A DNA stretch of 64,000 nt, from positions 30,579 through 94,578 of the forward strand of contig JALSHG010000012.1 of the NCBI GenBank assembly GCA_026982355.1, in the 5' to 3' direction. Made by a program: the position numbers and the translations under genes. The stretch is from Thermodesulfovibrio sp. GTDB taxonomy: Bacteria > Nitrospirota > Thermodesulfovibrionia > UBA6902. Below, piece by piece: positions 11,851 to 52,738 of this stretch. The notes below the pieces were generated by a model. It saw only the letters and a list, made by a program, of their open reading frames with translations, had not been told where the DNA came from and searched no databases. Numbering within the stretch: the first letter of the stretch is position 1; each line of letters opens with the position of its first letter.

Positions 11851-11852
11851 AA

Positions 11853-13049: not shown

Positions 13050-13240
13050 CTCTCATACGTCCCTTTCAGAACCGGCAGTCATGTATTGAAATCAAAGAGG
13101 TTTGCAACGGCGCAGGGCGTATTGCACGCTTCCGCCCGTCAAGCCGGATTTATAAACATATCACAAGTGTTTCGGAAATGTAAAACAGGGGGATGATACA
13201 AATCCGGAGATCAACGTTTGAAGGAAGGGGCGGGCCCTCC

Positions 13241-13279
13241 CGCCCGCAGGCGGTGTTTTTATGCAACTGTAAGGTTTAC
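13241..13279. repeat. Half copy (GCAGGCGGTGTTTTTATGCAACTGTAAGGTTTAC), almost identical to the arm at 46903
   Basis: Between argG start and nrdJ stop. Confidence 0.7.
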
Positions 13280-34402: not shown

Positions 34403-34403
34403 A

Positions 34404-35954: not shown

Positions 35955-35969
35955 TATCCGGTTTTTGTT

Positions 35970-36725: not shown

Positions 36726-36802
36726 AATAATCCCTCCTTCTGAAATAATATTTGCCTGGTAAAACAAACTGTATATGAATTCACTCTCTATCTGAATCAT
36801 AA

Positions 36803-38725
36803 TCACCTCAGGAAAATCCAGAATCCGATTATAAACATGGCGCCTAGCACCATGGCGAGGCCGTAGCTGGAGAGAAGGCCGGTCTGTATGGTCCTGAACC
36901 TCCTGCTGAAGGCGCCGATCAATGCCGGCACGCCGTTTACAATCCCTTCTATTATCTTTGCATCAAAAAAGCCGAGGATTATCCTGTCCGATGCCTTGAG
37001 CGTCGGCTGGACAATGGTCTTGCCGTAAAGTTCATCCACCCAGTACTTGTTGTACAGGAGCCTGTAGACCGGCTGGAACATGGCCCCCAGTTTCCCGGGC
37101 AGGTCGGTCTTCCTGATATACATGATATATGCTATCAGTATTCCGGCCAGACCCGCTATAATGGAGATTCCCATCACGGCCAGCTCTTCGGCATGTGAAC
37201 CCTCGCCTGCCGGATGCCCGAGCACCGGCGCGAGGAATTCACCGATCCTGTCCGCGTGTTCCAGAAAGATGGGCGGAATGCCCACCCAGCCAGCCGCCAC
37301 GGCGCCGACCGCGAGAATCATCAGAGGCACGGTTATCACGGGCGGCGACTCATGCAGGTGGCGCTCCTGCTCAGGAGTTCCGCGGAACTTGCCGTGGAAC
37401 GTCAGGTATATCAGCCTGAATGAGTAAAACGCGGTCAAGAGGGCCGCCGCGGCGGCAAGGAACCACAGGAACCTGCCGAGCCCGCCGCTCAGGTACGCCC
37501 TCCAGAGTATCTCGTCCTTGCTGAAGAAACCAGCGAAACCGGGTATGCCCGAAATGCTCAGCGATGCCAGGATAAACACCCAGTAGGTTATGGGCATGTA
37601 TTTTTTCAACCCGCCCATCTTCTGCATATTCTGCTCATCGTGCAGTGCATGTATAACGCTTCCCGATGCAAGGAAGAGCAGTGCCTTGAAGTAGGCGTGC
37701 GTATACAGGTGAAAGATTCCCGCTGTATAGGCACCCACCCCGAGCGCAAGGAACATGTACCCGAGCTGGCTCACCGTGGAGTACGCTATGACCCTCTTTA
37801 TGTCATTCTGCACAAGCGCAATGGTGGCCGCAAAGATGGCGGTCACGCCCCCGACGACCGCAACCGTGGCCATTGCCGATGCGGACAGGTTGAAAAGCGG
37901 GCTGCTGCGGGCGACCATGAACACGCCCGCCGTAACCATGGTTGCGGCGTGTATCAGTGCGGAAACCGGCGTGGGGCCTTCCATTGCGTCCGGCAGCCAC
38001 ACATGCAGCGGCAGCTGCGCCGATTTGCCCACGGCCCCGCAGAAGAGCAGCAGGCATATGACGGTAATGGTGTCGAACTGGTAACCGAGGATACTGATGG
38101 TCTGGCCGGCCACGCTGCCTGCATTCTCAAATACCTTCACGTATTCAAGGCTGCCGAATGTAAGGAAAATCAGTATCACGCCGAGACCGAAACCGAAGTC
38201 CCCGAACCTGTTGACTATAAAGGCCTTCTTGCCGGCGTCCGCTGCGGACTTTTTGTGGAACCAGAAGCCTATCAGGAAATAGGAGCACAGGCCCACGGCC
38301 TCCCAGCCGAAGTAAAGGAGCAGGAAGTTGTTGGCCATGACAAGGATGAGCATTGAGAAAACAAACAGGCTCAGATAGGCGAAGAAGCGGTAATAACCGC
38401 CGTCGCCGTGCATGTAGCCTATGGAATATATGAAGATAAGTGTGCTGATGGATGTAACCACCATCAGCATTACGGCGGTGAGCTGATCAATGAGAAACCC
38501 TATGGACACATTGAAGTCACCCGAGACTATCCAGCTGTATATGTTTATATTGATGACTTTTCCGCCCAGTACATCCATGAACGCGCTGACGGCAAGGATG
38601 AAAGAGGCGAACACGGCCGGCACCGCAATCCAGTGGGCCTTGTCTTTTATGTGGTTGCGCCCGAACAGGATGTTTATGACAAATGCAATAAACGGCAGTA
38701 ACGGTATCAATATATATTTCACCAT
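36803..38725 (-). CDS. nuoL: NADH-quinone oxidoreductase subunit L
   Basis: 640 aa antiporter-like subunit with long C-terminal helix region. Confidence 0.9.
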   Translation of the reverse strand: MVKYILIPLLPFIAFVINILFGRNHIKDKAHWIAVPAVFASFILAVSAFMDVLGGKVININIYSWIVSGDFNVSIGFLIDQLTAVMLMVVTSISTLIFIYSIGYMHGDGGYYRFFAYLSLFVFSMLILVMANNFLLLYFGWEAVGLCSYFLIGFWFHKKSAADAGKKAFIVNRFGDFGFGLGVILIFLTFGSLEYVKVFENAGSVAGQTISILGYQFDTITVICLLLFCGAVGKSAQLPLHVWLPDAMEGPTPVSALIHAATMVTAGVFMVARSSPLFNLSASAMATVAVVGGVTAIFAATIALVQNDIKRVIAYSTVSQLGYMFLALGVGAYTAGIFHLYTHAYFKALLFLASGSVIHALHDEQNMQKMGGLKKYMPITYWVFILASLSISGIPGFAGFFSKDEILWRAYLSGGLGRFLWFLAAAAALLTAFYSFRLIYLTFHGKFRGTPEQERHLHESPPVITVPLMILAVGAVAAGWVGIPPIFLEHADRIGEFLAPVLGHPAGEGSHAEELAVMGISIIAGLAGILIAYIMYIRKTDLPGKLGAMFQPVYRLLYNKYWVDELYGKTIVQPTLKASDRIILGFFDAKIIEGIVNGVPALIGAFSRRFRTIQTGLLSSYGLAMVLGAMFIIGFWIFLR

Positions 38726-38743
38726 GTCTTATCCTTCAATGAC

Positions 38744-39046
38744 TCATCCTTTCAGGAGGTTGATCTCATCCACCTTGATGGTGGGGTTGTTCCTGTAATA
38801 CGCGATTATTATGGCAAGGCCGATAGCCGCCTCCGCCGCCGCCACCGCAATCACGAAAAAGACAAGCACCTGCCCCCTCATGGACTGCAGGTAATGGCTG
38901 TAGGCGACCAGGCTTATATTCACTGAATTCAGCATCAGTTCAATTGACATGAATATCATGATCAGGTTGCGTCTTGTAAAAAAGCCCACAACGCCGATGC
39001 TGAACACCACGGCACTCAGTATTATGTACCAGCTTAACGGAACCAT
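38744..39046 (-). CDS. nuoK: NADH-quinone oxidoreductase subunit K
   Basis: Start taken at [10 protein letters not shown] (matches NuoK N-terminus MIPL...); upstream ORF extension runs through a tandem repeat and is judged non-coding. Confidence 0.85.
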
Positions 39047-39060
39047 TGCTCGCTCCATGC

Positions 39061-39135
39061 GCTTCTTGAGTATTGAGTATTGAATTTTGAATTTTGAATC
39101 TTGAATCTTGAATCTTGAATCTTGAGTATCGAATT
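39061..39135. repeat. Tandem 7-8 bp microsatellite (TTGAGTA/TTGAATTT/TTGAATC units, about 10 copies) in the nuoJ-nuoK intergenic gap
   Basis: Direct reading: cttgagtattgagtattgaattttgaattttgaatcttgaatcttgaatcttgaatcttgagtatcgaatt. Confidence 0.8.
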
Positions 39136-39143
39136 CCGCATAA

Positions 39144-39656
39144 TCATATCCTTTTCTTTGCAAGCACCACTGCGCCTACAATGGCCACAAGCAGCACAAG
39201 AGAGGCTATCTCAAACGGCAGCAGATACTTGGTATACATCACCTTTCCCAGCGTCATTATGCTGCCTTCGGACCTTATGGCCTCTATCGAGTATTCCCCG
39301 AGCGGCGGGAGCACGGTTATTCCGGCAACAACCGTCACCACGAACAGGGCGAATATCACCCCTATGGCCGCGCCCAGGACCCAGTGTTTCTGCACCTTGC
39401 GGACCGTCAGCTCTTTTTTCAGATTCAGCAGCATGATAACGAACAGAAACAGTACGAGTATGGCCCCCGCGTACACGATTATCTGTATGGCGGCCAGAAA
39501 TTCTGCATTCAGGAAGAGATAAAGCCCGGCTATGTGTACAAAGAGGACCAGCATCCACAGGACGCCGTGGACCGGATTCCTCCTCGTTATCATAACAACG
39601 GACAACAAGGTTATCATGCCTGCAAAATATGCGAAAAACCACTGTGGTGCCGTCAT
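39144..39656 (-). CDS. nuoJ: NADH-quinone oxidoreductase subunit J
   Basis: 170 aa, 5 TM. Confidence 0.9.
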
Positions 39657-40207
39657 GTCGCCTTTTTCCCCTCCGCTTGATGATGCCCTGCCGCGGGAAC
39701 TCCGAAGTCCTCTGATTTCGGTCTCCAGAATTTCTCCAGGTACTCCCTTCCCTTTGAGTTCGCCATGTACTTGTCCCAGTTATGCAGCAGGCGGTCTTTT
39801 GTATAATACAGTTCCTCCCGGCTGTAGCCGGAGTACTCGAAGTGGTCGGTAAGCACTATTGCGCCGTAGGGGCATGCCTCCACGCAAAAGGCGCAGTAGA
39901 CGCATCTCAGGACCTCCACCTCGTACCTGTCCACCACCTTTTTGTGGTCGTCATCCTCGCTTGTATAAATATGTATGCACTGCGAAGGACACATTGCGGC
40001 GCATAATCCGCACCCCACGCATTTCTCCCTCCCCGTCTCCGGGTCCCTTACAAGCGCGTGAAGCCCCCTGGAGCCGGGAAAGGGCTCCCTTTTCTCCGTG
40101 GGGTACTGCCTTGTCACAGAGGGAGTGAAGAAATGCCTCAGCGTGAGGGCAAGACCCTTCAGGATTTCAATGAAAAATACTTTTTTAATGAATTCGTTGG
40201 CTGTCAT
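39653..40207 (-). CDS. nuoI: NADH-quinone oxidoreductase subunit I (2x[4Fe-4S])
   Basis: CVGCGLCAAMCP and CVYCAFCVEACP ferredoxin motifs. Confidence 0.92.
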   Translation of the reverse strand: MTANEFIKKVFFIEILKGLALTLRHFFTPSVTRQYPTEKREPFPGSRGLHALVRDPETGREKCVGCGLCAAMCPSQCIHIYTSEDDDHKKVVDRYEVEVLRCVYCAFCVEACPYGAIVLTDHFEYSGYSREELYYTKDRLLHNWDKYMANSKGREYLEKFWRPKSEDFGVPAAGHHQAEGKKAT

Positions 40208-40243
40208 GGTCTGTAAATTTCATTTCATTCCAAGTTTAAAATT

Positions 40244-41215
40244 TCATAAGAGTTTAATCAGTCCGGTGAAAATAATATTCGCCAGGGCCAGCGGTATAAA
40301 GAGCTTCCATCCGAGGCCCATCAGCTGGTCATACCTGTATCTGGGCAGCGTGGCCCTCACCCAGAAATAGAAAAATATGAACGCATAAACCTTCAGCAGG
40401 AACCAAACTATACCGGGAACGCGGGCGAATATCCAGAAATCAGGCCCGCTCCAGCCCCCTAAAAAGCAGATGACGGCCAGCGCGGACATAACGAACATGC
40501 CTGCATATTCAGCCATAAAGAACAGTCCGAAACGTATGCCGCTGTATTCCGTGGCATAACCCGCCACAAGCTCGGTCTCCGCCTCCGGCAGGTCGAACGG
40601 CGCCCTGTTCGTCTCGGCCAGTGCGGCCATGAGGAATACAAAAAAGGCCACGATCTGGGGCAGCAGGAACCACTGCTCCGACTGCGCCCTTACAATATCC
40701 GAGAGGTTTGCGCTGCCGGCCATCATCATGACACCCACGAGGCTCAGGCCCATTGCGATTTCATAACTTATAACCTGGGCCGATGACCTCAGGCCGCCCA
40801 GGAAAGAATACTTGGAATTGGATGCCCAGCCTGCAAGTATTACGCTGTAGGAGCCCACTGATGAAAGCGCAAGGATATAGAGTATCCCTATATTAATATC
40901 CGCAATCGAAAAGCCCTCCCACATGGGGATGACCGCAAGGGAGCCGATCGCCGCGAGCAGCCCGATGATGGGCGCTATGTAGAAAATGGGCTTGTCCGCG
41001 TTCGAGGGTATGATATCTTCCTTGAAAAACAGCTTGATACCGTCGGCTATGGGCTGCAGCAGGCCGTGCCAGCCGACCCTCATGGGTCCGAGCCTTGCCT
41101 GCATGTGGCCTATCACCTTGCGCTCAAAGTACACCACATAGGCTACATGCAGCATCAACACATTGACCACGATAAAGACCTTGATAAATATCCAGAGCCA
41201 TTCCGGCATATTCAA
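40244..41215 (-). CDS. nuoH: NADH-quinone oxidoreductase subunit H
   Basis: 323 aa polytopic, ND1-like. Confidence 0.9.
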   Translation of the reverse strand: MNMPEWLWIFIKVFIVVNVLMLHVAYVVYFERKVIGHMQARLGPMRVGWHGLLQPIADGIKLFFKEDIIPSNADKPIFYIAPIIGLLAAIGSLAVIPMWEGFSIADINIGILYILALSSVGSYSVILAGWASNSKYSFLGGLRSSAQVISYEIAMGLSLVGVMMMAGSANLSDIVRAQSEQWFLLPQIVAFFVFLMAALAETNRAPFDLPEAETELVAGYATEYSGIRFGLFFMAEYAGMFVMSALAVICFLGGWSGPDFWIFARVPGIVWFLLKVYAFIFFYFWVRATLPRYRYDQLMGLGWKLFIPLALANIIFTGLIKLL

Positions 41216-43791
41216 CCCCTACCCTGTATTTTCTCTATTTTCACTTCGCATCCCTCCGTACCGGGAGCCTTGGTAATCTTATCAATACTGAAATTCATCA
41301 AATCATACACCCCGCTGCCCGTGAAATTGCCGCTCAGGAACACCCTGTTGTCCATGATGGTCCCGTCAACGGACACGGGCGCCTCGCACGAGCCTGCCGG
41401 CGTGGACAGCCTGACCTTATCGCCTTCTTTCAACCCGAGCTTTGCCGCACCGGCCGCGCCTATCCTCACGGTTGCCTCAGGGCATATCTTCATGAGCGCC
41501 CGGGACCTCCTTGAGAGCGTGCCCGAGTGAAACAGCGGTTTGTCAACGGCAAGATAGAAGTCCGCATTGTAGTCCTTTGCCCCATCCGGCATCTCGGGCA
41601 CCTCGTACATCTCTCCCCTGAGAGGCTCGCCGTGGTAAGGCCACAGCGCATCTCCCGCCGCTATCTCTCCGTAGGTCAGGTCGCGGTGCAGCGGAGAGAC
41701 CCTTGCCAGCTCGCGCATCACATCCTCCGGTCCGGAGTAGCTGGCCGGAACTCCCATCCTGCGGGAAAGCTCAGAGAGAATCCTCCAGTCCTCCATGCCC
41801 GAGGATGTCTCAACCGCCTTTCTCAGCAGTTGGATCCTCCGTTCAAGATTGGTATATGTCCCGGATTTTTCCGTCCATCCAAGGGCCGGAAGCACGACAT
41901 CGGCCATCTCCGCGGTCTCGGAAAGGAATATATCCTGGACAACAAGGAAATCAAGGGACCGCAACGCCTCTTTTACAAAGGAGCTGTGCGGAATATTGCG
42001 TACCGGGTTGTCTCCCATCACGTACAGGGCCTTGATATTCCCCTTTCCGGCGCCTTCGATGATCTCCAGCAGGGTCAGGCCCTCCCTGTCCGGGACAGCG
42101 GCCTTCCATACCGCCTCGAATTTGCCCCTGAAGTCCGGAACGTTGACCGGCCTTCCTCCCGGAAGCATGTCGGGCACACAGCCTGCATCAATAAGCCCCT
42201 GCTCGTTCGGTCTGCCCGAGAGCAGGTACAGCCTTGCCTCAAGCAGGTAGGTGAGTCCCGCCACCGCAAACAGGGCCCTGTGGCCGTCCGAGCGCTGGAC
42301 AATGTCCATACCGAGGACAATGGATGTGGATGCGCTCTGCAACAGCTTTTTCACGGTCTCGTCAATACCCTCGATACCCGTCTTTTTCCCGGATATCCTG
42401 TCGGAAAGCTCCCTGATCCCCTTGTCCACATAGGGCATATCACCCCGCACGCCCCTGTCACTGAAGACGCCTGTCAAAACCTCCTCCAGGACCTCGGCCT
42501 CCCTGAATACGCGGGGAATCACCTGCAGGGTCCGGAACTTGTCCAGTCCCTTTGCGTAGCCCACGACGATCACGCCGGCCCCGCGCCTTGCAGCTTCTCT
42601 TATGGAAAGGCCGAGCACGGGATTCACCGCCGCGGGGTCATCACCAAGGACCAGGATTGTCTCGGAATTCTTAAGGCCGTCCAGGAGATTGGCCGTTATG
42701 CCCTGTCCGAGCAGGTCCTCAAAGTATTTCTGCGCGGCCGCAAAACCGGTCCTTGAAACAGAGTCTATATTATTCGTTCCGCATGCCGTCCTCATAAATC
42801 TCTGAAATACGTAATTGTCCTCGTTTGTGCATCTCGGCGAGGCAATGCCCGCAATGGAGGCGCCGCCTTCCGCGTTTTTAACAGCCGTTAGTTTTGCGGC
42901 GACGATATCAAGCGCCTCGCTCCACGTGGCCTGCTGAAGCGTGCCGTCTTTTCTCACAAGCGGGGTCCTGAGCCTGTCCTCGCTGTGTATGTATTCATAG
43001 CCGAACCGCCCCCTTGAACAGAGGAGTCCCCTGTTCACCCCCAGGTCCATCCTGGGGATTACACGCTTTATGGAGTCGTCCCTGACCTGCACCACGAGCG
43101 AGCATCCGACGCCGCAGTACGGGCAGACGGTCTCCACTTCCCTGTCCAGTTGCCAGGGCCTGAAGCTGTGAATATACAGGCGGCTTAAGATGGCGCCCAC
43201 AGGGCACACAGTCAGACAGTTGCCGCAGTACTCGCAGTTGAACGACTCGGATGAGAAGGGCTCCACCCTCGAGCGGTTCCCCCTTCCTATCACGCTGATG
43301 GCGGATGCGCCCTGCACGTCGTTGCACATCCTTACACACCTCGTGCATACAACGCACCTCTCCATATTCCTTGCAAGGATATGGTCCTTGTGACTTTCGG
43401 GAACCTTTCTCTTTTCCTCGGTGTACCTGCCCGTGGTGGGCCCGTACCTGTTGACAAGGTCCTGCAGCTCGCATTCCCCCGCCTTGTCGCAGTAAGGGCA
43501 GTCAAGCGGGTGGTTTATGAGCAGAAACTCCAGTATCCCGCGCCGGGTTCTTGATATCTCCTCGGACTCTGTTCTCACGACCATGCCGTCCGCGGCCATC
43601 AGCGTGCAGGAATTCTGCAGTTTCGGCATCCTCTCCACCTCCACCACGCAGAGCCTGCATCCGCCGTAGGGTTTCAAAGCCTCGTGATGGCACAGTGTCG
43701 GTATCTTGATGCCGGCCTTCCTGGCGGCGTCAAGCACGGACATCGGCTTGTCCAGCGTAATCTCTTTTTCGTTGATAGTCAGAGTTATCAT
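41212..43791 (-). CDS. nuoG: NADH-quinone oxidoreductase subunit G (75 kDa, long form with molybdopterin-like domain)
   Basis: 859 aa; N-terminal 2Fe-2S and 4Fe-4S cysteine clusters (CHHEALKPYGGCRLC..., CDKAGEC, CVVCTRCVRMC). Confidence 0.92.
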   Translation of the reverse strand: MITLTINEKEITLDKPMSVLDAARKAGIKIPTLCHHEALKPYGGCRLCVVEVERMPKLQNSCTLMAADGMVVRTESEEISRTRRGILEFLLINHPLDCPYCDKAGECELQDLVNRYGPTTGRYTEEKRKVPESHKDHILARNMERCVVCTRCVRMCNDVQGASAISVIGRGNRSRVEPFSSESFNCEYCGNCLTVCPVGAILSRLYIHSFRPWQLDREVETVCPYCGVGCSLVVQVRDDSIKRVIPRMDLGVNRGLLCSRGRFGYEYIHSEDRLRTPLVRKDGTLQQATWSEALDIVAAKLTAVKNAEGGASIAGIASPRCTNEDNYVFQRFMRTACGTNNIDSVSRTGFAAAQKYFEDLLGQGITANLLDGLKNSETILVLGDDPAAVNPVLGLSIREAARRGAGVIVVGYAKGLDKFRTLQVIPRVFREAEVLEEVLTGVFSDRGVRGDMPYVDKGIRELSDRISGKKTGIEGIDETVKKLLQSASTSIVLGMDIVQRSDGHRALFAVAGLTYLLEARLYLLSGRPNEQGLIDAGCVPDMLPGGRPVNVPDFRGKFEAVWKAAVPDREGLTLLEIIEGAGKGNIKALYVMGDNPVRNIPHSSFVKEALRSLDFLVVQDIFLSETAEMADVVLPALGWTEKSGTYTNLERRIQLLRKAVETSSGMEDWRILSELSRRMGVPASYSGPEDVMRELARVSPLHRDLTYGEIAAGDALWPYHGEPLRGEMYEVPEMPDGAKDYNADFYLAVDKPLFHSGTLSRRSRALMKICPEATVRIGAAGAAKLGLKEGDKVRLSTPAGSCEAPVSVDGTIMDNRVFLSGNFTGSGVYDLMNFSIDKITKAPGTEGCEVKIEKIQGRG

Positions 43792-43870
43792 AAAAATCAG
43801 TTACACGCCGCGGGCCGCGGGGTTTTTTCCATAACTCAACCCGCAACACGCAATTCGCAGCGCCTATATT

Positions 43871-45133
43871 TCAATTCCTGAACTTACACTGTTTATCCCT
43901 GATATGTTCCTCGAATTCACTCCTGAAGTGTTTTATCATTCCCGTAACCACGCCCGCGGCGCCGTCTCCGAGGGGGCAGAATGTCCTGCCGGACATCACC
44001 CCTGCAACATCGGAAAGGAGATTGATGTCCCCTTCCCTTCCCTTTCCGTGCTCTATCCGCTCGAGTATCTTCCTGAGCCAGTCCGTGCCTTCCCTGCACG
44101 GGGTGCATTTCCCGCAGGACTCGTGCTCAAAGAACTTCATGGCCCTGTAAGTCACCCTGACCATGCACACCGATTCGTCCATGACTATCACCGCTCCGGA
44201 GCCGAGCATGCTGCCGGCCTTGGGCATTGCCACAAAATCCATGGCGCAGTCTATGGCGTCGGCCGGGAGAACCGGGGTGGAGATGCCGCCGGGGATCACC
44301 GCCTTCAGCTTTCCGTTGTCTTTGATTCCACCGGCGTGTTTATAGATGATGTCCCTCAGGCTCGTGCCCATGGGAAGTTCGTATACTCCGGGATTTTCAA
44401 CAAAACCGCTCACGCAGTAGAGCTTTGGGCCCGGACAGTCGCTGCTGCCTATCGCTGAATATGCCTCTCCGCCGATTTCGATGATATAAGGGATGTTGGA
44501 GAGGGTTTCGACATTATTGACAATAGTCGGCATGCTCCATGCACCCACATTCACCGGAAAGGGCGGCTTGGTCCTGGGCTGCCCTTTCTTGCCCTCGATT
44601 GATTCTATAAGCGCCGTCTCCTCGCCGCAGATATATGCGCCCGCCCCCTGATGCACGGAAAGCCGGAATCTCACACCCTTGCCGAGGATATCGTCCCCGA
44701 GGAAATTCTCCTTGTATGCCTGCTCTATGGCCCCCTCAAGGATATCCTTTGCAGCGGGATACTCGCCCCTGAGATAGATATAACCGTACTCGGCGCCCAG
44801 GGCATATCCCGATATGACCATGCCCTCTATCAGCAGGTGCGGATTCTTCTCGAGTATGGGCCTGTCCTTGAAGGTTCCGGGCTCGCCCTCGTCCGCATTG
44901 CATATCAGGTATTTCGGAAATTTCGGGTCAGCCATGGCAAAATTCCATTTCATGGCCGTGGGGAATCCAGCGCCGCCGCGGCCCCTGATGCCTGATTTCT
45001 TGACTTCCTCCACTATATCCGCGGGCTGCATCTGCAGGGCCTTTGCCAGACTCCGGTATCCGCCGGCCTTCCGGTATTCACCGATGTCGGCGGAATTGGG
45101 ATTGTCTATGTTTTTCAGCAGGACCTTTTCCAT
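43871..45133 (-). CDS. nuoF: NADH-quinone oxidoreductase subunit F (51 kDa, FMN/NADH-binding)
   Basis: 420 aa; GRGGAGFPT FMN-site motif, C-terminal 4Fe-4S (ESCGKCTPCREG). Confidence 0.93.
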   Translation of the reverse strand: MEKVLLKNIDNPNSADIGEYRKAGGYRSLAKALQMQPADIVEEVKKSGIRGRGGAGFPTAMKWNFAMADPKFPKYLICNADEGEPGTFKDRPILEKNPHLLIEGMVISGYALGAEYGYIYLRGEYPAAKDILEGAIEQAYKENFLGDDILGKGVRFRLSVHQGAGAYICGEETALIESIEGKKGQPRTKPPFPVNVGAWSMPTIVNNVETLSNIPYIIEIGGEAYSAIGSSDCPGPKLYCVSGFVENPGVYELPMGTSLRDIIYKHAGGIKDNGKLKAVIPGGISTPVLPADAIDCAMDFVAMPKAGSMLGSGAVIVMDESVCMVRVTYRAMKFFEHESCGKCTPCREGTDWLRKILERIEHGKGREGDINLLSDVAGVMSGRTFCPLGDGAAGVVTGMIKHFRSEFEEHIRDKQCKFRN

Positions 45134-45143
45134 GGCTTCCGTA

Positions 45144-45608
45144 TTATTTATAGTTCTCCAGTATCTCTTCTATCCTCTTTTCCGAAAGATTGTCGTAAAA
45201 ATCCGTATTGACCAGCATGGCCGGCGCCGTGCCGCATGCGCCTATGCACTCCATTATCACGAGTGAGAACCTGCCGTCCCCGCTCGTGCCGTTGGCAGGC
45301 ACGCCGTATCTTGTTTCCAGGAAATCCACGAGTTTCCCGGCGCCGAGTATCATGCATGAAATGTTCGTGCACAACTGAATCACGTGCCGCCCCGCGGGCT
45401 TGTGTTTATACATCGAGTAAAAAGAGGCCGTTCCCCTCACAACCGCCTCGGGCAGGTTGAGCGAGCGCGCCACGCACGTCATGGCCTCCCGGCTGAGCCA
45501 GCCGAACTCCCGCTGGGCGATGTACAGGGACGGCAACAGCGCGCTCCTGCGGTCCGGGTACTTCGCCTTTATTCCCTCGATTTCCTTCAATACGGTATCG
45601 TTAAACAT
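45144..45608 (-). CDS. nuoE: NADH-quinone oxidoreductase subunit E (24 kDa, 2Fe-2S)
   Basis: 154 aa; thioredoxin-like 2Fe-2S cysteines (CTNISC...CIGACGTAP). Confidence 0.92.
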   Translation of the reverse strand: MFNDTVLKEIEGIKAKYPDRRSALLPSLYIAQREFGWLSREAMTCVARSLNLPEAVVRGTASFYSMYKHKPAGRHVIQLCTNISCMILGAGKLVDFLETRYGVPANGTSGDGRFSLVIMECIGACGTAPAMLVNTDFYDNLSEKRIEEILENYK

Positions 45609-45657
45609 ATCAACAATGCATCCCTGTCACTTGTTCACTGAATAATCATCAATTGTT

Positions 45658-46881
45658 TTACCTGTCACATTCTCCCAGAACGATATCAATGCTTCCGATG
45701 TTTGCGATTACGTCCGCAACCAGTTCGCCCTCGCATATGGCGGGCAACGCCGAAATATGCACAAAGGACGGTGATCTTATCCTCATCCTGTACGGCCTTC
45801 CCGTCCCGTCACTGACGAAAAAGAAACCCAGTTCTCCCTTGGGAACCTCGGTCGCAACATAAAGCTCGCCCTCCGGCGCGGTCTGGGGCCCTTTTGTGAT
45901 AAGCACGAAGTGGTGTATGAGATGCTCCATGTCGCTGAGCACCTTGTCCTTTGCAGGCAGGGTGAACTTGGGCGCGTCGGCCATTATGGGCCCTTTGGGT
46001 ATCTTTTCGATACACTGCCTGATAATTGAATTGGACTCGCGGAATTCATCCATCCTCACGCGGTAACGGTCGTATATGTCGCCGTTCTTACCTATGCACA
46101 CCTGCCACTTGACCTTGTCGTAGACCCCGTAGGATGAAATTTTCCGTATATCGTAGGAAACGCCCGACCCCCTCAGCGCCGGGCCGCTCAGGCCCCAGTT
46201 GATGGCGTCTTCAGCGGAGATTACGCCGACACCCTTTGTGCGGCGCAGCCATATGCGGTTTTTGTCTATCAGGGTCTCATACTGCTCCACCCTGCCCGGG
46301 AATTCCTCGGTAAACTTGTAAAGGTCTTCCAGCCACTGGTCGTCCACATCGTTTTTCAGGCCGCCGATTCTCGGGTAGCTCACCGTGAGCCTTGCGCCGC
46401 AGAGCCTCTCGAATAAATCAAGGATTTTTTCCCTCTCCCTGAAACAGTACAGGAACACCGTCATTGCGCCTATATCAAGTGCATGGGTTGCAAGCCAGAG
46501 GAGGTGGTTTGTTATGCGGGCCATCTCCCCGACAATGGTCCTTATGTATTCCGTCCTTTCCGGGACCTTTATGCCGAAGAGCTTCTCCACCGCCACGCAG
46601 TAGCCTATGTTGTTGGCCATGGAGGCGATGTAATCAAGGCGGTCCGTGAGCGGTATTATCTGCATGTAGTTCCTGTTCTCCGCGAGCTTCTCAACCCCCC
46701 TGTGCAGATAACCGACATACGGGGTGCACTTGACAATGGTTTCACCGCTCAGGTCGAGCACCAGCCTCAGGACACCGTGCGTGGCAGGGTGCTGGGGCCC
46801 CATGCTGAGAGTCAGCTCTTTTTCGGACAGGCGTGCGTCGCTGTCCGCTGCATCAACCTCTTTACCGCTGATGTTTTCCAT
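45658..46881 (-). CDS. nuoD: NADH-quinone oxidoreductase subunit D (49 kDa)
   Basis: 407 aa; separate from nuoC (unfused). Confidence 0.92.
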
Positions 46882-46902
46882 AATGACCGAAATTTCAGTT
46901 CG

Positions 46903-46956
46903 CCTTACAGTTGCATAAAAACACCGCCTGCCGGCTTATGCAACATCAAGGTTTTA
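46903..46956. repeat. Copy of the element (CCTTACAGTTGCATAAAAACACCGCCTGCCGGCTTATGCAACATCAAGG) inside the nuo operon, in the 100-bp nuoC-nuoD gap
   Basis: Palindromic arms TTGCATAAAAAC / GCTTATGCAA; 22 bp upstream of nuoD ATG. Confidence 0.8.
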
Positions 46957-46981
46957 AAGAACTGTTAAAAAATACAGGTTA

Positions 46982-47514
46982 TCAAGATTGAATATTCCAC
47001 TCTTTATCATGGGAATGCAAATCCTTGAGCTCTTCGAAACCCTTGTACTCCCAGCCCTCCGGGCCTTTCAGGGGATAATCCTTTCTTAACGGATAGCCCT
47101 CCCAGTCTTCCGGCATAAGTATCCGCCTCAGATCCGGATGGCCGCTGAAGACTATGCCGTACATGTCGCAGGCCTCCCTCTCATGCCAGTTTGCGCCCTT
47201 CCATACGGGAACAACCGAATCAACCGACGGGTCGCTCTCGGGCAACTGCACCTTGAGCATGAGCCTGTGCTTGAATTTTATGGAATAGAGATTATACACC
47301 ACCTCGAAACGGAGTCTCCTGCCGGGGTAATCCACACCGCACAGGTCCGCCAGGTAATTCATCCGGATGTCCGGCGCGTCATGGAGATAGCGGCATATGT
47401 CGACGATCTTCTCCCGTTTGACGGTCACGAAGACCTGATCCCTGAACTGCTTCACATCAACGATTTCGTCTGAAAACTTCCCTTTAAGCCTCTCGACTAT
47501 CTCCAGGGGCTCCA
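46982..47514 (-). CDS. nuoC: NADH-quinone oxidoreductase subunit C (30 kDa)
   Basis: Start taken at [10 protein letters not shown] with AAAGGAG RBS; longer ORF extension overlaps nuoB and is rejected. Confidence 0.88.
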
Positions 47515-48015
47515 TCTGAAATGCTCCTTTTGTATTTTCTCCTGAAGTTTCATTACGCCGTCCATCAACGCCTCGGGTCTCGGGGGGCACCCGGGCACAT
47601 AGACATCCACGGGCAGAAATGTATCGCACCCCTGAACGACCCCGTAGGTATTGTATATATTTCCGGAGCAAGCGCAACTGCCCATCGCGATCACATACCG
47701 GGGTTCGGGCATCTGGTCGTAAACCCTCCGCACCACCGGCGCCATCTTCTTTGTTACGGTGCCCGCGATAATAATGACGTCCGACTGCCTGGGGGACGCG
47801 CGGAATATAACGCCGAAACGGTCAAAGTCATAATGGCTTGCACCTGAGGCCATCATTTCAATTGCACAGCAGGCGAGACCGAAGGTCATGGGCCAGAGCG
47901 AGTTTTTCCTGCCCCAGTTTATGACATTGTCCAGGGTGGTTATAAACATGTTGGTACCCGGCACGACCTTTGTGCCTTTCTCTACTTCAACCAATGTCGC
48001 ACTGTCCTTCACCAT
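47497..48015 (-). CDS. nuoB: NADH-quinone oxidoreductase subunit B (N2 4Fe-4S)
   Basis: 172 aa; CCxxE...GSCACSG...PGCPP cluster motifs. Confidence 0.93.
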
Positions 48016-48053
48016 TTTTCCGTCAACCGTTCAGCGGGCGGCAGCCGTATCCC

Positions 48054-48425
48054 TCATTCCCACTCAAACGCCCCTTTCTTCCAGACATACACATAGCCTA
48101 TCAGCAGTATAAATATGAACAGCATCATCTCGACAAACCCGAATATCCCGAGCTTGTCATAGGCAACGGCCCATGGATAGAGAAAAACCGCTTCAACATC
48201 GAATACGACAAACAGCATTGCAACAATATAGAACTTGACGGAGAACCTGTATCTCGGTTCGCCGACAGGCGGATTCCCGGATTCATAAGGCGTGAGTTTC
48301 TGGGCGTACGGTCTCCTCGGCCTCAAAAGAATTCCCACGACCAGCGCGCCCATACCAATGGCCGCTGCAAGCAAAAAAGTTATCAGTACCGGCAAGTAGT
48401 CCGATGGGATGTAAGTTCCGGGCAT
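48054..48425 (-). CDS. nuoA: NADH-quinone oxidoreductase subunit A (start ambiguous: ATG 48425 or TTG 48464)
   Basis: 3-TM ND3-like protein; the longer TTG-initiated ORF coincides with a TTGACA promoter-like hexamer. Confidence 0.85.
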   Translation of the reverse strand: MPGTYIPSDYLPVLITFLLAAAIGMGALVVGILLRPRRPYAQKLTPYESGNPPVGEPRYRFSVKFYIVAMLFVVFDVEAVFLYPWAVAYDKLGIFGFVEMMLFIFILLIGYVYVWKKGAFEWE

Positions 48426-48434
48426 AGCCCTTGT

Positions 48435-48464
48435 TTTATACACAAAAACTGTTGCTTCTGTCAA
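48435..48464 (-). promoter_or_regulatory. Candidate sigma70-type promoter for nuo operon (TTGACA-N18-TATAAA) ending 9 nt before nuoA ATG 48425
   Basis: Hexamer match on minus strand; implies near-leaderless nuoA or alternative TTG start. Confidence 0.25.
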
Positions 48465-48654
48465 TGAATATTAGTCTTGCTTATCATAAGTTTTAACTTA
48501 TTTATCACCGTGGAGAAAACCGGCTGTCAACAGAGCCAATACTGGCTTGCGGTTATCCGGAAATCACCCGTGTCCGGACAGGCGGTTCCGCGGGACCGGA
48601 AACAATTTCTCCCTTTATTTTTTTCCTTTAAAAAAATATAATACGGTTGAAATT

Positions 48655-50295
48655 ATGAGGAACCTCTTTCAGAATCCCAGGAAGTCCATTGCGGCCAAGC
48701 TGATCATCGCCATCGGCCTGTTGATGGTTACAGTGAGTTTCATCTTCTGGTACGCCATCCTGAAAAAACAGGAAAAGGACATCATGTCGATCGCCCGCAA
48801 GTACGGAAACTCCTTCGTGGATTTCGCAAAACAGAGCACCCGGCAGAGCATGCTTGCCCACCGGCCTGAACAGACACAGCAGATACTCGAAAACCTGAGC
48901 ACCCCCGAAGGCGTGCAGAGGGTGATGATATACAATCATGACGGGAAAATACTCTATTGTACGCAGAGCCAGCATCCGGGCAAATTTGTCGACAAGTCAT
49001 CCATAGCGTGCAGGGCGTGCCATTCAGAGCCGGAAAAATCCCCGGACCTGCTCGTGACGCCGCAGAACTGGGCCGTTCACAAGAACGGCAGCGGCTTTAC
49101 AACGCTCAAGATCGTGAGCCCGATTGCCAACGAACCGGCCTGTTATAACGCAAGCTGCCATGCGCATCCCAGGGAACGGGAGATACTCGGATTCGTCGAG
49201 GCCGATCTGTCCCTGGCCATACTTGACGAGGCGCTCTTCAAACAGAGCCTTGCGCTGACCGCATATGTGGTGCTGTTTGTGCTTGCGGTATCCCTGTCGC
49301 TCGGCATAATCCTGTACAAGATAGTATCCAAGCCCGTCAACGAGCTCGTCCAGGGCATGAAGAAGGTGGCCGCCGGGGACCTTGATTATTCCGTGCCGAT
49401 AAAGTCCGTTGATGAAATGGGGGTGCTGGCCGACACGTTCAACTCCATGATAAAGGATTTAAAGGCCGCAAGGGACCAGAGGGAGCGCTGGACCCAGACA
49501 CTCGAGGAAGAAGTCGCAAAAAAGACCGAGGAGATCAAAAAGACGCACGCCAGCCTCGTGCAGACGGAAAAGCTCGCATCCCTCGGAAGAATGGCGGCCG
49601 GCGTGGCGCACGAAATAAACAACCCCCTGACCGGCGTCGTCACATTCGCACACCTGATGAAAAAGCGTTTCCCGCCGGACAGCATCGACGCCGAAGACCT
49701 CGACGTGATCATCGAACAGGCGGAACGCTGCGCGAAAATAATAAAGAACCTCCTCACATTCGCACGTGCCACTCCATCTGAAAAAGGTGAGATAGACATA
49801 AACAACGTACTGACAAGGACCATAAACCTCGTAAAGAACCAGGAGAAATTCTACAACATCAAGTTCGACATCAGGCTGGCGGATTACCCGCTCATCACGG
49901 TCGGCGACTCGCCGCAATTCCAGCAGATATGCCTGAACATGTTCCTGAACGCCGCCGACGCCATGGATGCCAGGGGCACGATAACGGTCGCAACCCGCAA
50001 GGTCATTGAAGACGACAAGGCCTATGCGGAGATAGAGTTCACGGATACCGGCTGCGGAATAAAAGAAGAGGACATGCAGAAACTGTTCGAACCGTTTTTC
50101 ACGACAAAGCCGGTTGACAAGGGAACGGGACTCGGCCTGTCCGTCAGTCACGGCATTGTCAAGCACCTCGGGGGGAATATCCGGGTGAAAAGCACTGTTG
50201 GCAAAGGGACAAGCTTTTTTGTTAGACTACCCCTGATAGAAAAGAAAACCGCGGAAAAGAAAAACCATGAAAAAGAAAATCCTGGTAATAGATGA
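48655..50295 (+). CDS. Sensor histidine kinase with periplasmic domain carrying c-type heme-binding motifs (CxxCH and CxxxxCH), HAMP, HisKA and HATPase domains
   Basis: Start at MRNLFQ (ATG 48655); two TM segments flank ~190 aa periplasmic region with CRACH (49009-49023) and CYNASCH (49141-49161); H-box AHEINNPLT. Confidence 0.85.
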   Translation: MRNLFQNPRKSIAAKLIIAIGLLMVTVSFIFWYAILKKQEKDIMSIARKYGNSFVDFAKQSTRQSMLAHRPEQTQQILENLSTPEGVQRVMIYNHDGKILYCTQSQHPGKFVDKSSIACRACHSEPEKSPDLLVTPQNWAVHKNGSGFTTLKIVSPIANEPACYNASCHAHPREREILGFVEADLSLAILDEALFKQSLALTAYVVLFVLAVSLSLGIILYKIVSKPVNELVQGMKKVAAGDLDYSVPIKSVDEMGVLADTFNSMIKDLKAARDQRERWTQTLEEEVAKKTEEIKKTHASLVQTEKLASLGRMAAGVAHEINNPLTGVVTFAHLMKKRFPPDSIDAEDLDVIIEQAERCAKIIKNLLTFARATPSEKGEIDINNVLTRTINLVKNQEKFYNIKFDIRLADYPLITVGDSPQFQQICLNMFLNAADAMDARGTITVATRKVIEDDKAYAEIEFTDTGCGIKEEDMQKLFEPFFTTKPVDKGTGLGLSVSHGIVKHLGGNIRVKSTVGKGTSFFVRLPLIEKKTAEKKNHEKENPGNR

Positions 50296-50635
50296 CGAGC
50301 TGATAGTAAGGAGAAGCTGTGAAAGGACCCTTGAGCCGGAAGGCTTCGATACAAAGGTGTCGGCCAGCGGCAAGGAGGGCATTGAACTGCTCGAAAAGGA
50401 GCCTTTCGACCTTGTCCTGCTCGACCTGAAGATGCCCGACATGGACGGCATCGAGGTCCTCAGGAAAATCAAGGCGGCATGGCCTGAAACAAAGGTAGTG
50501 ATAATAACGGGCTACAGCACCGTGGAGACGGCGGTAAAGACGCTGAAGCTCGGGGCCCATAACTACATAGAGAAACCCTTTACCCCCGATACCCTGGTCA
50601 ATGCCGTCAAAGAGGTTTTCGAAGAACCGGGTTAA
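50267..50635 (+). CDS. Single-domain CheY-like response regulator
   Basis: 122 aa receiver domain (ILVIDDE...LLDLKMPDMDG...); overlaps HK 3' end. Confidence 0.85.
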   Translation: MKKKILVIDDELIVRRSCERTLEPEGFDTKVSASGKEGIELLEKEPFDLVLLDLKMPDMDGIEVLRKIKAAWPETKVVIITGYSTVETAVKTLKLGAHNYIEKPFTPDTLVNAVKEVFEEPG

Positions 50636-50644
50636 TGAATTCAC

Positions 50645-51001
50645 GTGACATTAAGAGAGATAATAGATATCCTTGATGCGACCGTTATAACACCCCTGGG
50701 AGATGAAGACTTAAATGCGGATATACGCAGCGCATGCAGCGCCGACCTGATGAGCGCGGTGCTGTATTACCATACTCCCGACTCCCTTCTGATCACCGGG
50801 CTTACGCAGGCGCATGTAATCCGGACGGCCGAGATCGCCGGCATAAAGACCATCGTATTTGTCCTGGGCAAAAAGCCGGATATATATTCCATCGAGCTTG
50901 CCGAAGAAAAAAAAATATCCCTGCTCAGCACGTCCCTGTGCATGTACACCGCCTCGGGCAGGCTGTTCCGGGCGGGGCTGCCGGGCTGCCTGTATAAATA
51001 A
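50645..51001 (+). CDS. DRTGG-domain-like small protein
   Basis: 118 aa; resembles the DRTGG domain (as at phosphotransacetylase N-terminus) with degenerate motif. Confidence 0.5.
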   Translation: MTLREIIDILDATVITPLGDEDLNADIRSACSADLMSAVLYYHTPDSLLITGLTQAHVIRTAEIAGIKTIVFVLGKKPDIYSIELAEEKKISLLSTSLCMYTASGRLFRAGLPGCLYK

Positions 51002-51006
51002 AAAAC

Positions 51007-51450
51007 ATGCCGATAAACATAGACAAGGAAATAGAGGGCAGCTTCCAGATAATAGGCGGCAACTTTGTCAATGCGGGCGAGGCGTCCACCCAGTTGAAGC
51101 TCCTGCTCACCAAGCTCGGAGTGGACGAAGATATAATCAGGCGTACGGCCATTGCAACTTTCGAGGCGGAGATGAACGTAATAATATATGCGGCGGCAGG
51201 CAGGATGCACTATCACATCACGCCGCGGGGCATATCAATAAAAGTGGATGACATGGGGCCCGGGATTGAAGACATCGAGCTGGCGATGCAGGAAGGCTAT
51301 TCCACCGCGCCCGACTGGGTACGGGAGATGGGATGGGGTGCGGGCATGGGCCTGCCGAACATGAAGAAAAACTCCGACATATTCAAGATAGACTCTGTTG
51401 TGGGCGAAGGGACAACCATTGAAATGGTCATAAACTTCCCGCAACAGTGA
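51007..51450 (+). CDS. GHKL-family ATPase (anti-sigma regulatory factor / Ser-protein kinase-like, HATPase_c_2)
   Basis: 147 aa; G-boxes (DDMGPGI, GWGAGMGL) of RsbW/SpoIIAB-like kinases. Confidence 0.65.
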   Translation: MPINIDKEIEGSFQIIGGNFVNAGEASTQLKLLLTKLGVDEDIIRRTAIATFEAEMNVIIYAAAGRMHYHITPRGISIKVDDMGPGIEDIELAMQEGYSTAPDWVREMGWGAGMGLPNMKKNSDIFKIDSVVGEGTTIEMVINFPQQ

Positions 51451-51493
51451 ACCTTAACCTTAATGCGGCGTAAACGCGCAGAGGAGTCATGCC
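51449..51493. repeat. Half copy with core (AACCTTAACCTTAATGCGGCGTAAACGCGCAGAGGAGTC); its GAGGAG supplies the RBS of the downstream DRTGG gene
   Basis: Direct reading. Confidence 0.65.
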
Positions 51494-51835
51494 ATGAAAC
51501 TCTCGGATTTTGCCGGGGAACTGTCGCTGGAGGTGAAAACCTGCAAAGAGGGACTTGAGCGCGAGATTACGGGGGTCTACGTCAGCGACCTGCTTTCCGA
51601 TGTAATGGCCAACAGCCGGGCAGGCGACATCTGGATAACGCTTCAGACGCACCTGAACATCGTGGCTGTTGCGGGCATGAAAAATCTTGCGGGGATTATC
51701 ATCGTCGGGGGCAGAAAACTGCCGGAGGACACCAGACAAAAGGCGGAGGCTGAAAAGATTCCCATAATGACCACGCCCCTGCCGGCATTTGAAGCAGCCG
51801 GCAGGATGTACCGGAAGTTGAAAGAGCAGGGCTGA
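51494..51835 (+). CDS. DRTGG-domain-like small protein (second copy)
   Basis: 113 aa; paralogous to 50645-51001; RBS GAGGAG contributed by an intergenic repeat element. Confidence 0.5.
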   Translation: MKLSDFAGELSLEVKTCKEGLEREITGVYVSDLLSDVMANSRAGDIWITLQTHLNIVAVAGMKNLAGIIIVGGRKLPEDTRQKAEAEKIPIMTTPLPAFEAAGRMYRKLKEQG

Positions 51836-51958
51836 GGGAAACCGTTCAACGGTGTGGTTTTGCCCGCCTGTCCCGGCCCGTAAATCACCGGCGCCTTGTT
51901 GGGTCTGATTAATTGCTTCAGATCGTATATGCGTTTAATCATAAATTATCTTTCTTAA

Positions 51959-52738
51959 ATGCTGAAAGAGTTCAGAGCCGACCTCCACATACACACATGC
52001 CTGTCCCCGTGCGCCGACCTCGACATGACCCCTTCATCAATAGTGAAAACCGCCCGTGAAAAAAACCTTGATATAATAGCCGTAACAGACCACAACTCAG
52101 CGGAAAACACGGCCGCAGCCCGCAGGGCCGCCGGGGGCACGGCGCTGACCGTGCTTGCCGGAATGGAGATCACGTCCTCCGAAGAGGCGCATATCCTGGC
52201 CGTTTTCGATGATATGGAAGGTGTCATGAAATTGCAGGACAAGGTATATGAGAGCCTTTTGCCCGCGGAAGACATCCGGCCGTCCTCCCCGTTTGACACA
52301 GGGGGTCCCGGGGGGTTCGGAGAGCAGGTGGTGGTTAATGAAAAAGACGAGGTCATGGGATTCAGCAACCGCCTCCTCATAGGCGCAACAGCCCTGCCGG
52401 CTGATTCCATTGTCAACACAATACACTCTCTCGGCGGACTCGCGGTGGCCTCCCACGTGGACAGGGAGGCATTCAGCATCATATCGCAGCTCGGTTTCAT
52501 CCCGGGGGAACTGAAATTCGATGCACTGGAGATATCCGCAAGGGCGGACAGGAAGAACGCCGAACACCTGTTTGAAAACTACAGGTCCTTCGCGTGGATA
52601 TCCTCATCAGATGCGCATTACATAAAAGACATCGGCAGGGCGGCAACGGTCTTTCTGATAAAAGAGCCGACGGCGGCGGAGATGGCCCTGGCCATGAAGG
52701 GTGTCAATGGAAGAAGCGTGAAACGGCCGCGGTTGTAA
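51959..52738 (+). CDS. PHP-domain (polymerase/histidinol phosphatase-like) metal-dependent phosphoesterase
   Basis: 259 aa; DLHIHT...VTDHN motifs. Confidence 0.8.
   Translation: MLKEFRADLHIHTCLSPCADLDMTPSSIVKTAREKNLDIIAVTDHNSAENTAAARRAAGGTALTVLAGMEITSSEEAHILAVFDDMEGVMKLQDKVYESLLPAEDIRPSSPFDTGGPGGFGEQVVVNEKDEVMGFSNRLLIGATALPADSIVNTIHSLGGLAVASHVDREAFSIISQLGFIPGELKFDALEISARADRKNAEHLFENYRSFAWISSSDAHYIKDIGRAATVFLIKEPTAAEMALAMKGVNGRSVKRPRL

Follow-up and report, generated by a model that had tools for sequence, protein, structure and literature searches.

A putative diheme Cache-type sensor histidine kinase encoded head-to-head with the nuo operon in Thermodesulfovibrio sp.

Sensor domains that carry a c-type heme in the periplasm on a PAS/Cache fold have been described (Londer 2006 and Pokkuluri 2008, as cited in PMC3831638 and PMC8396549). 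In the Geobacter chemoreceptor GSU0935, the heme is attached through Cys140 and Cys143, His144 is the proximal ligand, and Met60 was shown by experiment to be the distal ligand (PMC8396549). The oxidised heme of this protein is high-spin, the reduced heme is low-spin with the Met bound, and the Met is displaced by nitric oxide (NO) and carbon monoxide (CO) (PMC8396549). The midpoint potentials are -251 mV for GSU0935 and -156 mV for the related GSU0582, and both proteins bind NO in both redox states and CO when reduced (PMC8396549). Here we describe a gene for a sensor histidine kinase of 546 amino acids (aa), located at positions 48655..50295 on the forward (+) strand of a 64,000-nucleotide stretch of Thermodesulfovibrio sp. 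DNA (Nitrospirota; Thermodesulfovibrionia; assembly GCA_026982355.1, contig JALSHG010000012.1, positions 30,579 to 94,578). This stretch is hereafter called the window, and coordinates refer to it unless another locus is named. We propose, with a probability of about 0.72, that the product is a redox or small-ligand sensor kinase with two c-type hemes in a periplasmic Cache domain, signalling to a stand-alone receiver encoded by an overlapping gene.

A 2026 preprint (PMC12889525) defined the family sCache_heme (DUF3365/Tll0287-like, PF11845), which includes GSU0582 and GSU0935. Its members are fused to kinases, chemoreceptors and GGDEF domains, are enriched in Nitrospirota and Desulfobacterota, and were proposed to sense NO or redox state (PMC12889525). 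Neither ‘two heme’ nor ‘diheme’ has a match in the text of that preprint. Periplasmic domains that resemble that of GSU0582 and contain two CX2-4CH motifs have been recorded, by sequence only, for GSU0599 and GSU0591 of G. sulfurreducens and for Adeh_2011 and Adeh_3383 of Anaeromyxobacter (PMC8396549, PMC3831638); GSU0599 is annotated as a two-component protein, and the likeness of these four proteins to the family studied here is one of description only. With the work of Londer and Pokkuluri, the sCache_heme preprint and the two-motif proteins on record, this kind of sensor is thus already known. What appears to be undescribed is a large branch of kinases with a CX4CH motif at the ancestral heme site, an additional CxxCH motif, and a Met and a His as a pair of candidate ligands. 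We regard the finding as a well-supported yet unsurprising extension of a known sensor type.

The open reading frame (ORF) of the kinase spans 48547-50295 (+), and its likeliest start is the ATG at 48655; a separate gene call on the source contig gave the identical 546-aa product. The domains are arranged in the order of a first transmembrane helix (TM1), a periplasmic Cache domain, a second transmembrane helix (TM2), HAMP, HisKA and HATPase_c. Hydropathy analysis gave exactly two hydrophobic segments in the protein, aa ~12-36 and ~198-226, and helices run through both of them in the AlphaFold2 (AF2) model. TM1 (aa ~14-34; 48694..48756, +) coincides with a hydropathy peak at aa 9-38 and lies within AF2 helix 12-67, while TM2 (aa ~199-221; 49249..49317, +), with a peak at aa 193-226 and AF2 helix 188-223, runs into the HAMP domain. 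As the N-terminus preceding TM1 is basic (R2, R9, K10 and K15), and hence cytoplasmic, the stretch of ~163 aa between the helices (aa 36-198; 48760..49248, +) should face the periplasm as a single-Cache (PDC) sensor domain. An earlier note on this DNA had assigned both heme motifs to a periplasmic domain between two transmembrane helices, with which translation and hydropathy agree, although its estimate of ~190 aa for the domain was too large. The cytoplasmic part comprises HAMP (aa 220-270; 49312..49464, +; PF00672, E 4.7e-14, 52.9 bits), the HisKA dimerization and phosphotransfer domain (aa 310-373; 49582..49773, +; PF00512, E 1.3e-16, 60.8 bits, cut-off 26.9) and HATPase_c (aa 417-527; 49903..50235, +; PF02518, E 2.6e-25, 89.4 bits, cut-off 26.4). 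The phospho-acceptor His319, in the motif AHEINNP, is nearly invariant among 87 full-length homologues, and the N, G1, F and G2 boxes of HATPase_c are all present (N432, D464/G466/G468, F478 and G492-L495 conserved). The protein is a class-I (HisKA) transmembrane HAMP histidine kinase with, judging from its sequence, intact catalytic residues.

Two putative heme attachment motifs are found in the translated sensor domain, on the side of the membrane at which cytochrome c maturation takes place. Site 1, CRACH (C119, C122 and H123; aa 119-123; 49009..49023, +), is in an insert between strands beta2 and beta3, and site 2, CYNASCH (C163, C168 and H169; aa 163-169; 49141..49161, +), is preceded by a conserved P-I-x-N-E. 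A chance origin of the motifs was ruled out, as (i) at the Cys and His frequencies of the window proteins (1.30% and 1.95%, respectively) only ~5e-4 motifs of one spacing, and ~3e-7 for both, are expected in 160 aa, and (ii) the motifs are conserved throughout the family. The kinase is also alone among the 50 proteins of the window in carrying any CX2-4CH. Both motifs are retained in close relatives (58-66% identity), which are mostly fragments from metagenome-assembled genomes (MAGs) of Nitrospirota. A profile of the sensor domain built from these relatives was searched against 1.84 billion cluster representatives, and matched 1,917 of them at E<=1e-3; at the stricter cut-offs of E<=1e-10 and E<=1e-30, 811 and 141 remained, respectively. 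Among 131 selected aligned homologues, the three residues C119/C122/H123 of site 1 were kept in every sequence and C163/C168/H169 of site 2 in all but two (129/131), while the residues between the motif cysteines are free to vary. The earlier note had named a lack of conservation of the cysteines in orthologues as a finding that would refute its reading; they turned out to be essentially invariant.

The spacing of the cysteines carries further information. Among 165 members covering both sites, 159 have CxxCH at site 1; at site 2, 159 have CX4CH, five have CX2CH and one has CX3CH. The sites are separated by 42-44 residues in 149 of 159 members, and a His directly follows the second Cys of both motifs in every case. 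Since a spacer of two, three or four residues is tolerated at site 2 and the Cys..Cys-His arrangement is always kept, we interpret this site as one for heme attachment rather than for a metal or a disulfide. We infer from these patterns that the sensor domain carries two covalent c-type hemes, with both motifs occupied.

The fold and the kinship of the domain point in the same direction. The earlier note had suggested structure prediction as a check on the fold, and an AF2 model of the domain, made with a 48-sequence alignment (predicted local distance difference test score 87.3, predicted template modelling score 0.82), is Cache/PAS-like. In the numbering of the domain construct, the model begins with a long N-terminal helix, a second helix and strands 52-59 and 63-67, and continues with a short helix at site 1, strands 104-108 and 114-123, a short helix at site 2 and a last strand at 142-151. 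Solved Cache domains likewise begin with a long helix, after which comes an antiparallel sheet of five strands with helical inserts, and the predicted fold is of the single-Cache type. When the 48-sequence family profile was compared with Protein Data Bank (PDB) sequences, the two best matches were 3b42 (E 2.3e-7) and 3b47 (E 1.4e-6), both of which are periplasmic heme-c sensor domains of Geobacter chemoreceptors. The Geobacter segment P-F-P-N-E-Q-R-C-Q-S-C-H aligns with P-I-x-N-E-P-x-C-x-x-A-x-C-H of the family. As C163..C168-H169 thereby falls on the CQSCH of 3b42 and 3b47, site 2 is the homologue of a heme site proven by crystallography. The Geobacter structures have nothing that corresponds to site 1, which shows local similarity to a heme site in the cytochrome c nitrite reductase NrfA (E 0.002, family profile against PDB). 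The alignment thus reverses one emphasis of the earlier note, which had rightly read CRACH as a canonical motif and had taken CYNASCH for a CX4CH variant: CX4CH occupies the ancestral site, and the canonical CxxCH is the addition. The assignment of the kinase to the GSU0582/GSU0935 type made in the same note was borne out by the two PDB matches and by PF21563 (Mcp40H-20_sensor), which matches 41 of the 48 family members at E<=10 (best 1.6e-9) and 24 of the 87 full-length relatives at E<=1e-4. PF11845 gave weak matches in 18 of the 48 relatives at E<=10 (best 0.0099), and further weak local matches around the motifs were to cytochrome families, namely Cytochrome_C7 (7/48 members), the MtrC/F domain (6/48) and NrfA.

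The domain resembles those of GSU0935 and GSU0582 (3B42 and 3B47) in being extracytoplasmic between two transmembrane helices, in being followed by HAMP, in its Cache/PAS-like fold, in a heme motif placed after P-x-x-N-E and before the last beta-strand, and in a candidate distal Met on the N-terminal helix. In contrast, the Geobacter proteins have a single heme on CxxCH and a chemoreceptor output, whereas the kinase has CX4CH at that site, a histidine-kinase output, an extra CxxCH ~43 residues upstream, and, two residues beyond the motif, a His that most members keep. With sCache_heme the domain shares the Cache fold, the extracytoplasmic location and a c-heme motif on a short helix before the last strand(s), but members of sCache_heme have one strictly conserved canonical CXXCH and about half of them are stand-alone (PMC12889525). 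The family studied here has two sites, with CX4CH at the homologous one, and 85 of the 87 full-length members are HAMP kinases.

Met66 (48850..48852, +) is the candidate distal axial ligand of heme 2, i.e., the heme of site 2. Its position is occupied by Met in 130 of the 131 homologues, and by residue count in the profile alignment it lies opposite chain residue M26 of 3b42. The latter corresponds to Met60 of GSU0935 in full-length numbering, given that C106 of the chain is Cys140. Heme 2 would therefore be ligated by His169 and Met66. His171 (CX4CH-x-H; 49165..49167, +) is kept in 123 of the 131 homologues and in 150 of the 165 members covering both sites, and may tentatively be put forward as the sixth ligand of heme 1, the heme of site 1.

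Among the 87 full-length homologues, we found HAMP in 85, HATPase_c in 84, HisKA in 79, an extra PAS in ~11 and GGDEF in only 2; given this dominance of HAMP, HATPase_c and HisKA, the family is a kinase-linked branch. Named sources are MAGs of Nitrospirota, Acidobacteriota, Thermoanaerobaculia, Desulfobacteraceae, Zixibacteria, Gemmatimonadetes and Planctomycetes (Thermoguttaceae), in which the members bear the annotation ‘two-component system NtrC family sensor kinase’ or ‘hypothetical’. In three loci from ENA metagenome assemblies (L020, L021 and L026), the kinase and its neighbours are broken into several short ORFs. These breaks are likely sequencing frameshift errors, and errors of this kind would account for the large number of fragments (130-290 aa) among the database ‘homologues’.

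The gene directly 3' of the kinase (50267..50635, +) encodes a stand-alone CheY-like receiver of 122 aa (Pfam Response_reg, E 2.2e-33) with D9/D10, D53 and K103 in place, and overlaps the kinase gene by 29 nucleotides (nt). The CheY-like regulator that the earlier note had placed downstream is thus a receiver-only protein: Pfam detected no domain besides Response_reg, and no DNA-binding domain, and NCBIfam models cover only the receiver part of longer regulators. Close alignment recovered 19 orthologous loci, a search whose reach was limited to Thermodesulfovibrionia. They come from Nitrospirota/Thermodesulfovibrionia MAGs, except for two unclassified ‘Bacterium BMS3’ records and one MAG labelled Deferribacteres. 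The receiver gene directly follows the kinase gene in all 19, and is presumably the cognate partner of the kinase. In the MAG labelled Deferribacteres (JAADFS010000083.1), 11 of 12 compared window proteins are 92-99% identical to their counterparts, and FolK is 77% identical; this label probably reflects an error in binning or taxonomy, because the other classified relatives all belong to Nitrospirota/Thermodesulfovibrionia.

Four genes in the same orientation as the kinase and receiver genes follow, with spacings of 6-123 nt (50645..52738). By Pfam, they encode a DRTGG protein (50645-51001, +), an anti-sigma-type kinase of the HATPase_c_2 family (51007-51450, +; SpoIIAB-like in NCBIfam), a second DRTGG protein (51494-51835, +) and a PHP phosphoesterase (51959-52738, +). 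This group of genes resembles a regulatory set of kinase and phosphatase. In 18 of the 19 orthologous loci (L013 is the exception), the receiver gene is followed by the genes for the first DRTGG protein and for HATPase_c_2; all four genes, PHP included, were detected in 12, several of the others ending before PHP. A PHP protein and an anti-sigma-type kinase also accompany NuoE and NuoF in a [FeFe]-hydrogenase operon of Halanaerobium (PMC4237134). A homology search with the HATPase_c_2 protein listed close orthologues only, so that the spread of the module with NuoE/F rests on this one literature example. We found no description of the function of the DRTGG/PHP module in the literature.

In seven orthologous loci, the PHP gene is followed by genes for a HATPase_c-only protein (183 aa) and a fusion of a receiver with GcvH (255 aa), and in six of these seven by a gene for a fusion of a receiver with a HoxE/NuoE [2Fe-2S] domain (290-302 aa). 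These genes occupy 12079-14547 of locus L007 and occur also in L002, L005, L012, L015 and L019, and partly in L014. No description of receiver-NuoE or receiver-GcvH fusions was found in the literature. In L007, a nucleotidyltransferase/HEPN pair of the toxin-antitoxin type (11229-11937) is inserted between the PHP and HATPase_c genes.

Upstream, the kinase gene is divergent from the nuoA-N operon for complex I (32945..48425, -), which includes NuoE, NuoF and NuoG; the operon was identified from ORFs, Pfam (NuoA), and NuoB-H on the source contig. The head-to-head arrangement with nuoA (48054-48425, -; Pfam) pointed out in the earlier note is confirmed, and nuoDCBA stands head-to-head with the kinase gene in 16 of the 18 orthologous loci that include upstream DNA, L013 and L014 being the exceptions. 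In L014, genes for ATP sulfurylase and for adenylate kinase lie upstream instead, as would fit a sulfate-reducing organism. We also examined eight distant members of the family, one of which (L027) is cut by a contig end. The kinase gene of one of them (~37% identity) is divergent from a cluster of a response regulator, a response regulator-histidine kinase, nuoE, nuoF and nuoABCD, and the neighbourhood of another includes genes for NuoF-like and NuoG-like proteins and for a receiver-GcvH protein. Three adjoin a trio of GcvH-like, 4Fe-4S (Fer4_11) and NrfD genes accompanied by genes for a sigma54 regulator and an M54 peptidase (L025 3322-8968; L028 945-7137; L020 8001-16810), and two have the sigma54 regulator and the M54 peptidase only. 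The GcvH-like/4Fe-4S/NrfD set may be an uncharacterised quinone-linked module under control of the kinase. In this small sample, the link of the kinases to NADH-dehydrogenase-type modules is supported as an association that is recurrent, not universal.

An AT-rich block of 73 nt in the intergenic region (48434..48506) is almost invariant in an alignment of 17 orthologous loci, and the remaining intergenic DNA could not be aligned. Read on the strand of nuoA, the block contains TTGACA-N18-TATAAA, followed by a Shine-Dalgarno-like AAGGG and ATG, and is probably the nuo promoter or an operator. As an RNA element the block was rejected, with no Rfam family and no stable fold (z -0.47). On the side of the kinase, a perfect TATAAT box lies at 48637-48642, 12 nt 5' of the ATG, and the orthologues have a conserved TTATAATA 8-16 nt 5' of the kinase start. 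No Shine-Dalgarno sequence is visible before the kinase start, and the mRNA may, to judge from the sequence, be leaderless or nearly so.

Several observations weigh against our proposal, both on the side of the hemes and on that of the target. On two-motif members of the family, this protein included, heme is predicted from sequence. The query itself falls below the Pfam thresholds of the heme-sensor families (PF21563: 18.5 bits, E 0.0026, gathering threshold 27 bits; PF11845: 12.2 bits, E 0.26, threshold 24.1), a search of PDB sequences with the single sequence gave noise only (CD22, E 0.6), and aa 35-195 have no Pfam or NCBIfam match at default thresholds; with nothing from these searches, the kinship to the Geobacter sensors is seen with the family profile only. 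Three arginines kept in most of the family are replaced in the query (M91, A140 and T149), and its heme pocket may consequently differ from the family norm. His171 is kept in five of the six members that lack site 1 and is absent in ~15 members with site 1, and an exclusive link of His171 to heme 1 was rejected on this co-variation test. No cytochrome c maturation genes were found within the 64-kb window; in L013, from a genome of the same class, CcsA (PF01578) and ResB/CcsB (PF05140) are encoded at 436-2737, 4-6 kb upstream of the orthologous kinase, indicating that the clade has System II cytochrome c maturation. Some of these points would suit a domain without heme, in which the cysteines and histidines form a disulfide pair or a Zn, Fe or Cu site and the Cache domain senses a small molecule or a metal, all the more as disulfides are common among periplasmic cysteines and Cache domains are mostly cofactor-free ligand binders (PMC12889525). 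We nevertheless consider this very improbable. A His follows the second Cys without exception, spacers of two, three and four residues at site 2 are incompatible with the geometry of a metal site or a disulfide but not with heme attachment, site 2 and Met66 have their homologues in a proven heme site and its axial ligand, and the weak matches around the motifs are to cytochromes. If hemes are present, their physiological signal could still be NO, or another diatomic gas, displacing a weak sixth ligand, in place of redox potential. NO-sensor-like spectra and NO binding have been observed in signalling-linked members of sCache_heme (PMC12889525), and both Geobacter proteins to which site 2 and Met66 are homologous bind NO and CO (PMC8396549). 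A second heme, a near-invariant Met and a mostly conserved His, however, resemble a small electron-transfer chain more than a gas pocket, and the neighbours are NADH-dehydrogenase or quinone-linked modules, not genes for NO detoxification. A dedicated gas sensor, which would be compatible with our model and differ from it in the physiological signal only, is therefore unlikely in our view.

As to the target, the adjacency to nuo may be an accident of the lineage, with the kinase and receiver serving only the DRTGG/HATPase_c_2/PHP module or an unlinked target. All the nuo-adjacent orthologues (61-94% identity) belong to one class, Thermodesulfovibrionia, so that the conserved gene order may reflect common descent; in L014 the downstream module is retained but nuo is missing, and L013 has the kinase and receiver genes only. 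Among the distant members, most have sigma54-type regulators and other genes as neighbours, including the M54 peptidase and the GcvH/FeS/NrfD trio. The HATPase_c-only, receiver-GcvH and receiver-HoxE/NuoE genes of the sister genomes are absent from the window, where folK follows the PHP gene. With no DNA-binding domain in the receiver, direct control of nuo transcription is not supported either. On the other hand, NuoE/F-type genes stand beside two of the eight distant members examined, the receiver-HoxE/NuoE fusion genes lie within the same cluster in six orthologous loci, and PHP and anti-sigma-kinase genes accompany NuoE/NuoF hydrogenase operons in Firmicutes (PMC4237134). An accidental adjacency is accordingly a serious possibility, albeit one that we find somewhat doubtful. 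Of the two roles suggested by the earlier note, that of a regulator of complex I expression is weakened by the nature of the receiver, and that of a respiratory-state sensor fits better.

Under the proposal of a diheme sensor kinase, for which the axial ligands, the sensed signal, the phosphotransfer partner and the target are all inferred, signalling could proceed as follows. Heme 2, with C163 and C168 as attachment residues, His169 as the proximal ligand and Met66 as the sixth ligand, would occupy the site of the single heme of the Geobacter proteins. Heme 1 (C119/C122, His123 as the proximal ligand, perhaps His171 on the other side) would sit in the beta2-beta3 insert, which forms the lid of the ligand pocket in ordinary Cache domains, and could serve as the point of electron entry, or as a tuning heme, and so connect the sensing heme with redox carriers of the periplasm. 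Oxidation or reduction of the hemes, or displacement of Met66 by NO or CO, would alter heme coordination, as in the Geobacter proteins, and thereby shift the N-terminal helix relative to the beta-sheet. Since TM1 is a continuation of the helix bearing Met66, an exchange of ligand would displace TM1 with respect to TM2 and thereby act on HAMP, and the movement would set the autophosphorylation of His319. The phosphoryl group would then pass to Asp53 of the translationally coupled stand-alone receiver. The receiver would act through protein-protein contacts, most plausibly with products of the co-transcribed DRTGG/HATPase_c_2/DRTGG/PHP module, on NADH-dehydrogenase-type machinery.

ArcB and RegB/PrrB are examples of membrane-bound kinases that monitor the redox state of the respiratory chain and control genes of respiration. 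These kinases sense via cysteines or quinone binding, at the membrane or on its cytoplasmic face, and signal to regulators that bind DNA. Unlike them, the kinase described here would sense via periplasmic c-type hemes and signal to a receiver-only protein.

It is attractive to speculate that diheme Cache kinases are widespread but unrecognised sensors of periplasmic redox poise, and that in Thermodesulfovibrionia they exert post-translational control of NADH-dehydrogenase-type modules. Heme 1 would then take electrons from periplasmic carriers or a quinol-linked chain, and heme 2 would switch its Met ligand. The signal would travel via receivers that are stand-alone, as in the window, or fused to HoxE/NuoE-like and GcvH-like domains, as in the sister genomes, and the DRTGG/HATPase_c_2/PHP module would cooperate in a manner resembling a partner-switching kinase-phosphatase set. 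In this full breadth the proposal is unlikely. Both the work on Geobacter chemoreceptors and the 2026 survey treat heme-c Cache/PAS sensors as one-heme domains, and a branch of at least 1,900 representatives is hidden under the name ‘NtrC family sensor kinase’, with Pfam missing the domain in the query. If two hemes are confirmed, the kinase would provide a compact model for the cooperation of an electron-transfer heme and a ligand-switching heme in transmembrane signalling. The nuo and NuoE/F neighbourhoods, together with the receiver-NuoE fusions, would in that case open the way to tests of the means by which anaerobic organisms adjust NADH oxidation to the redox state of the periplasm.

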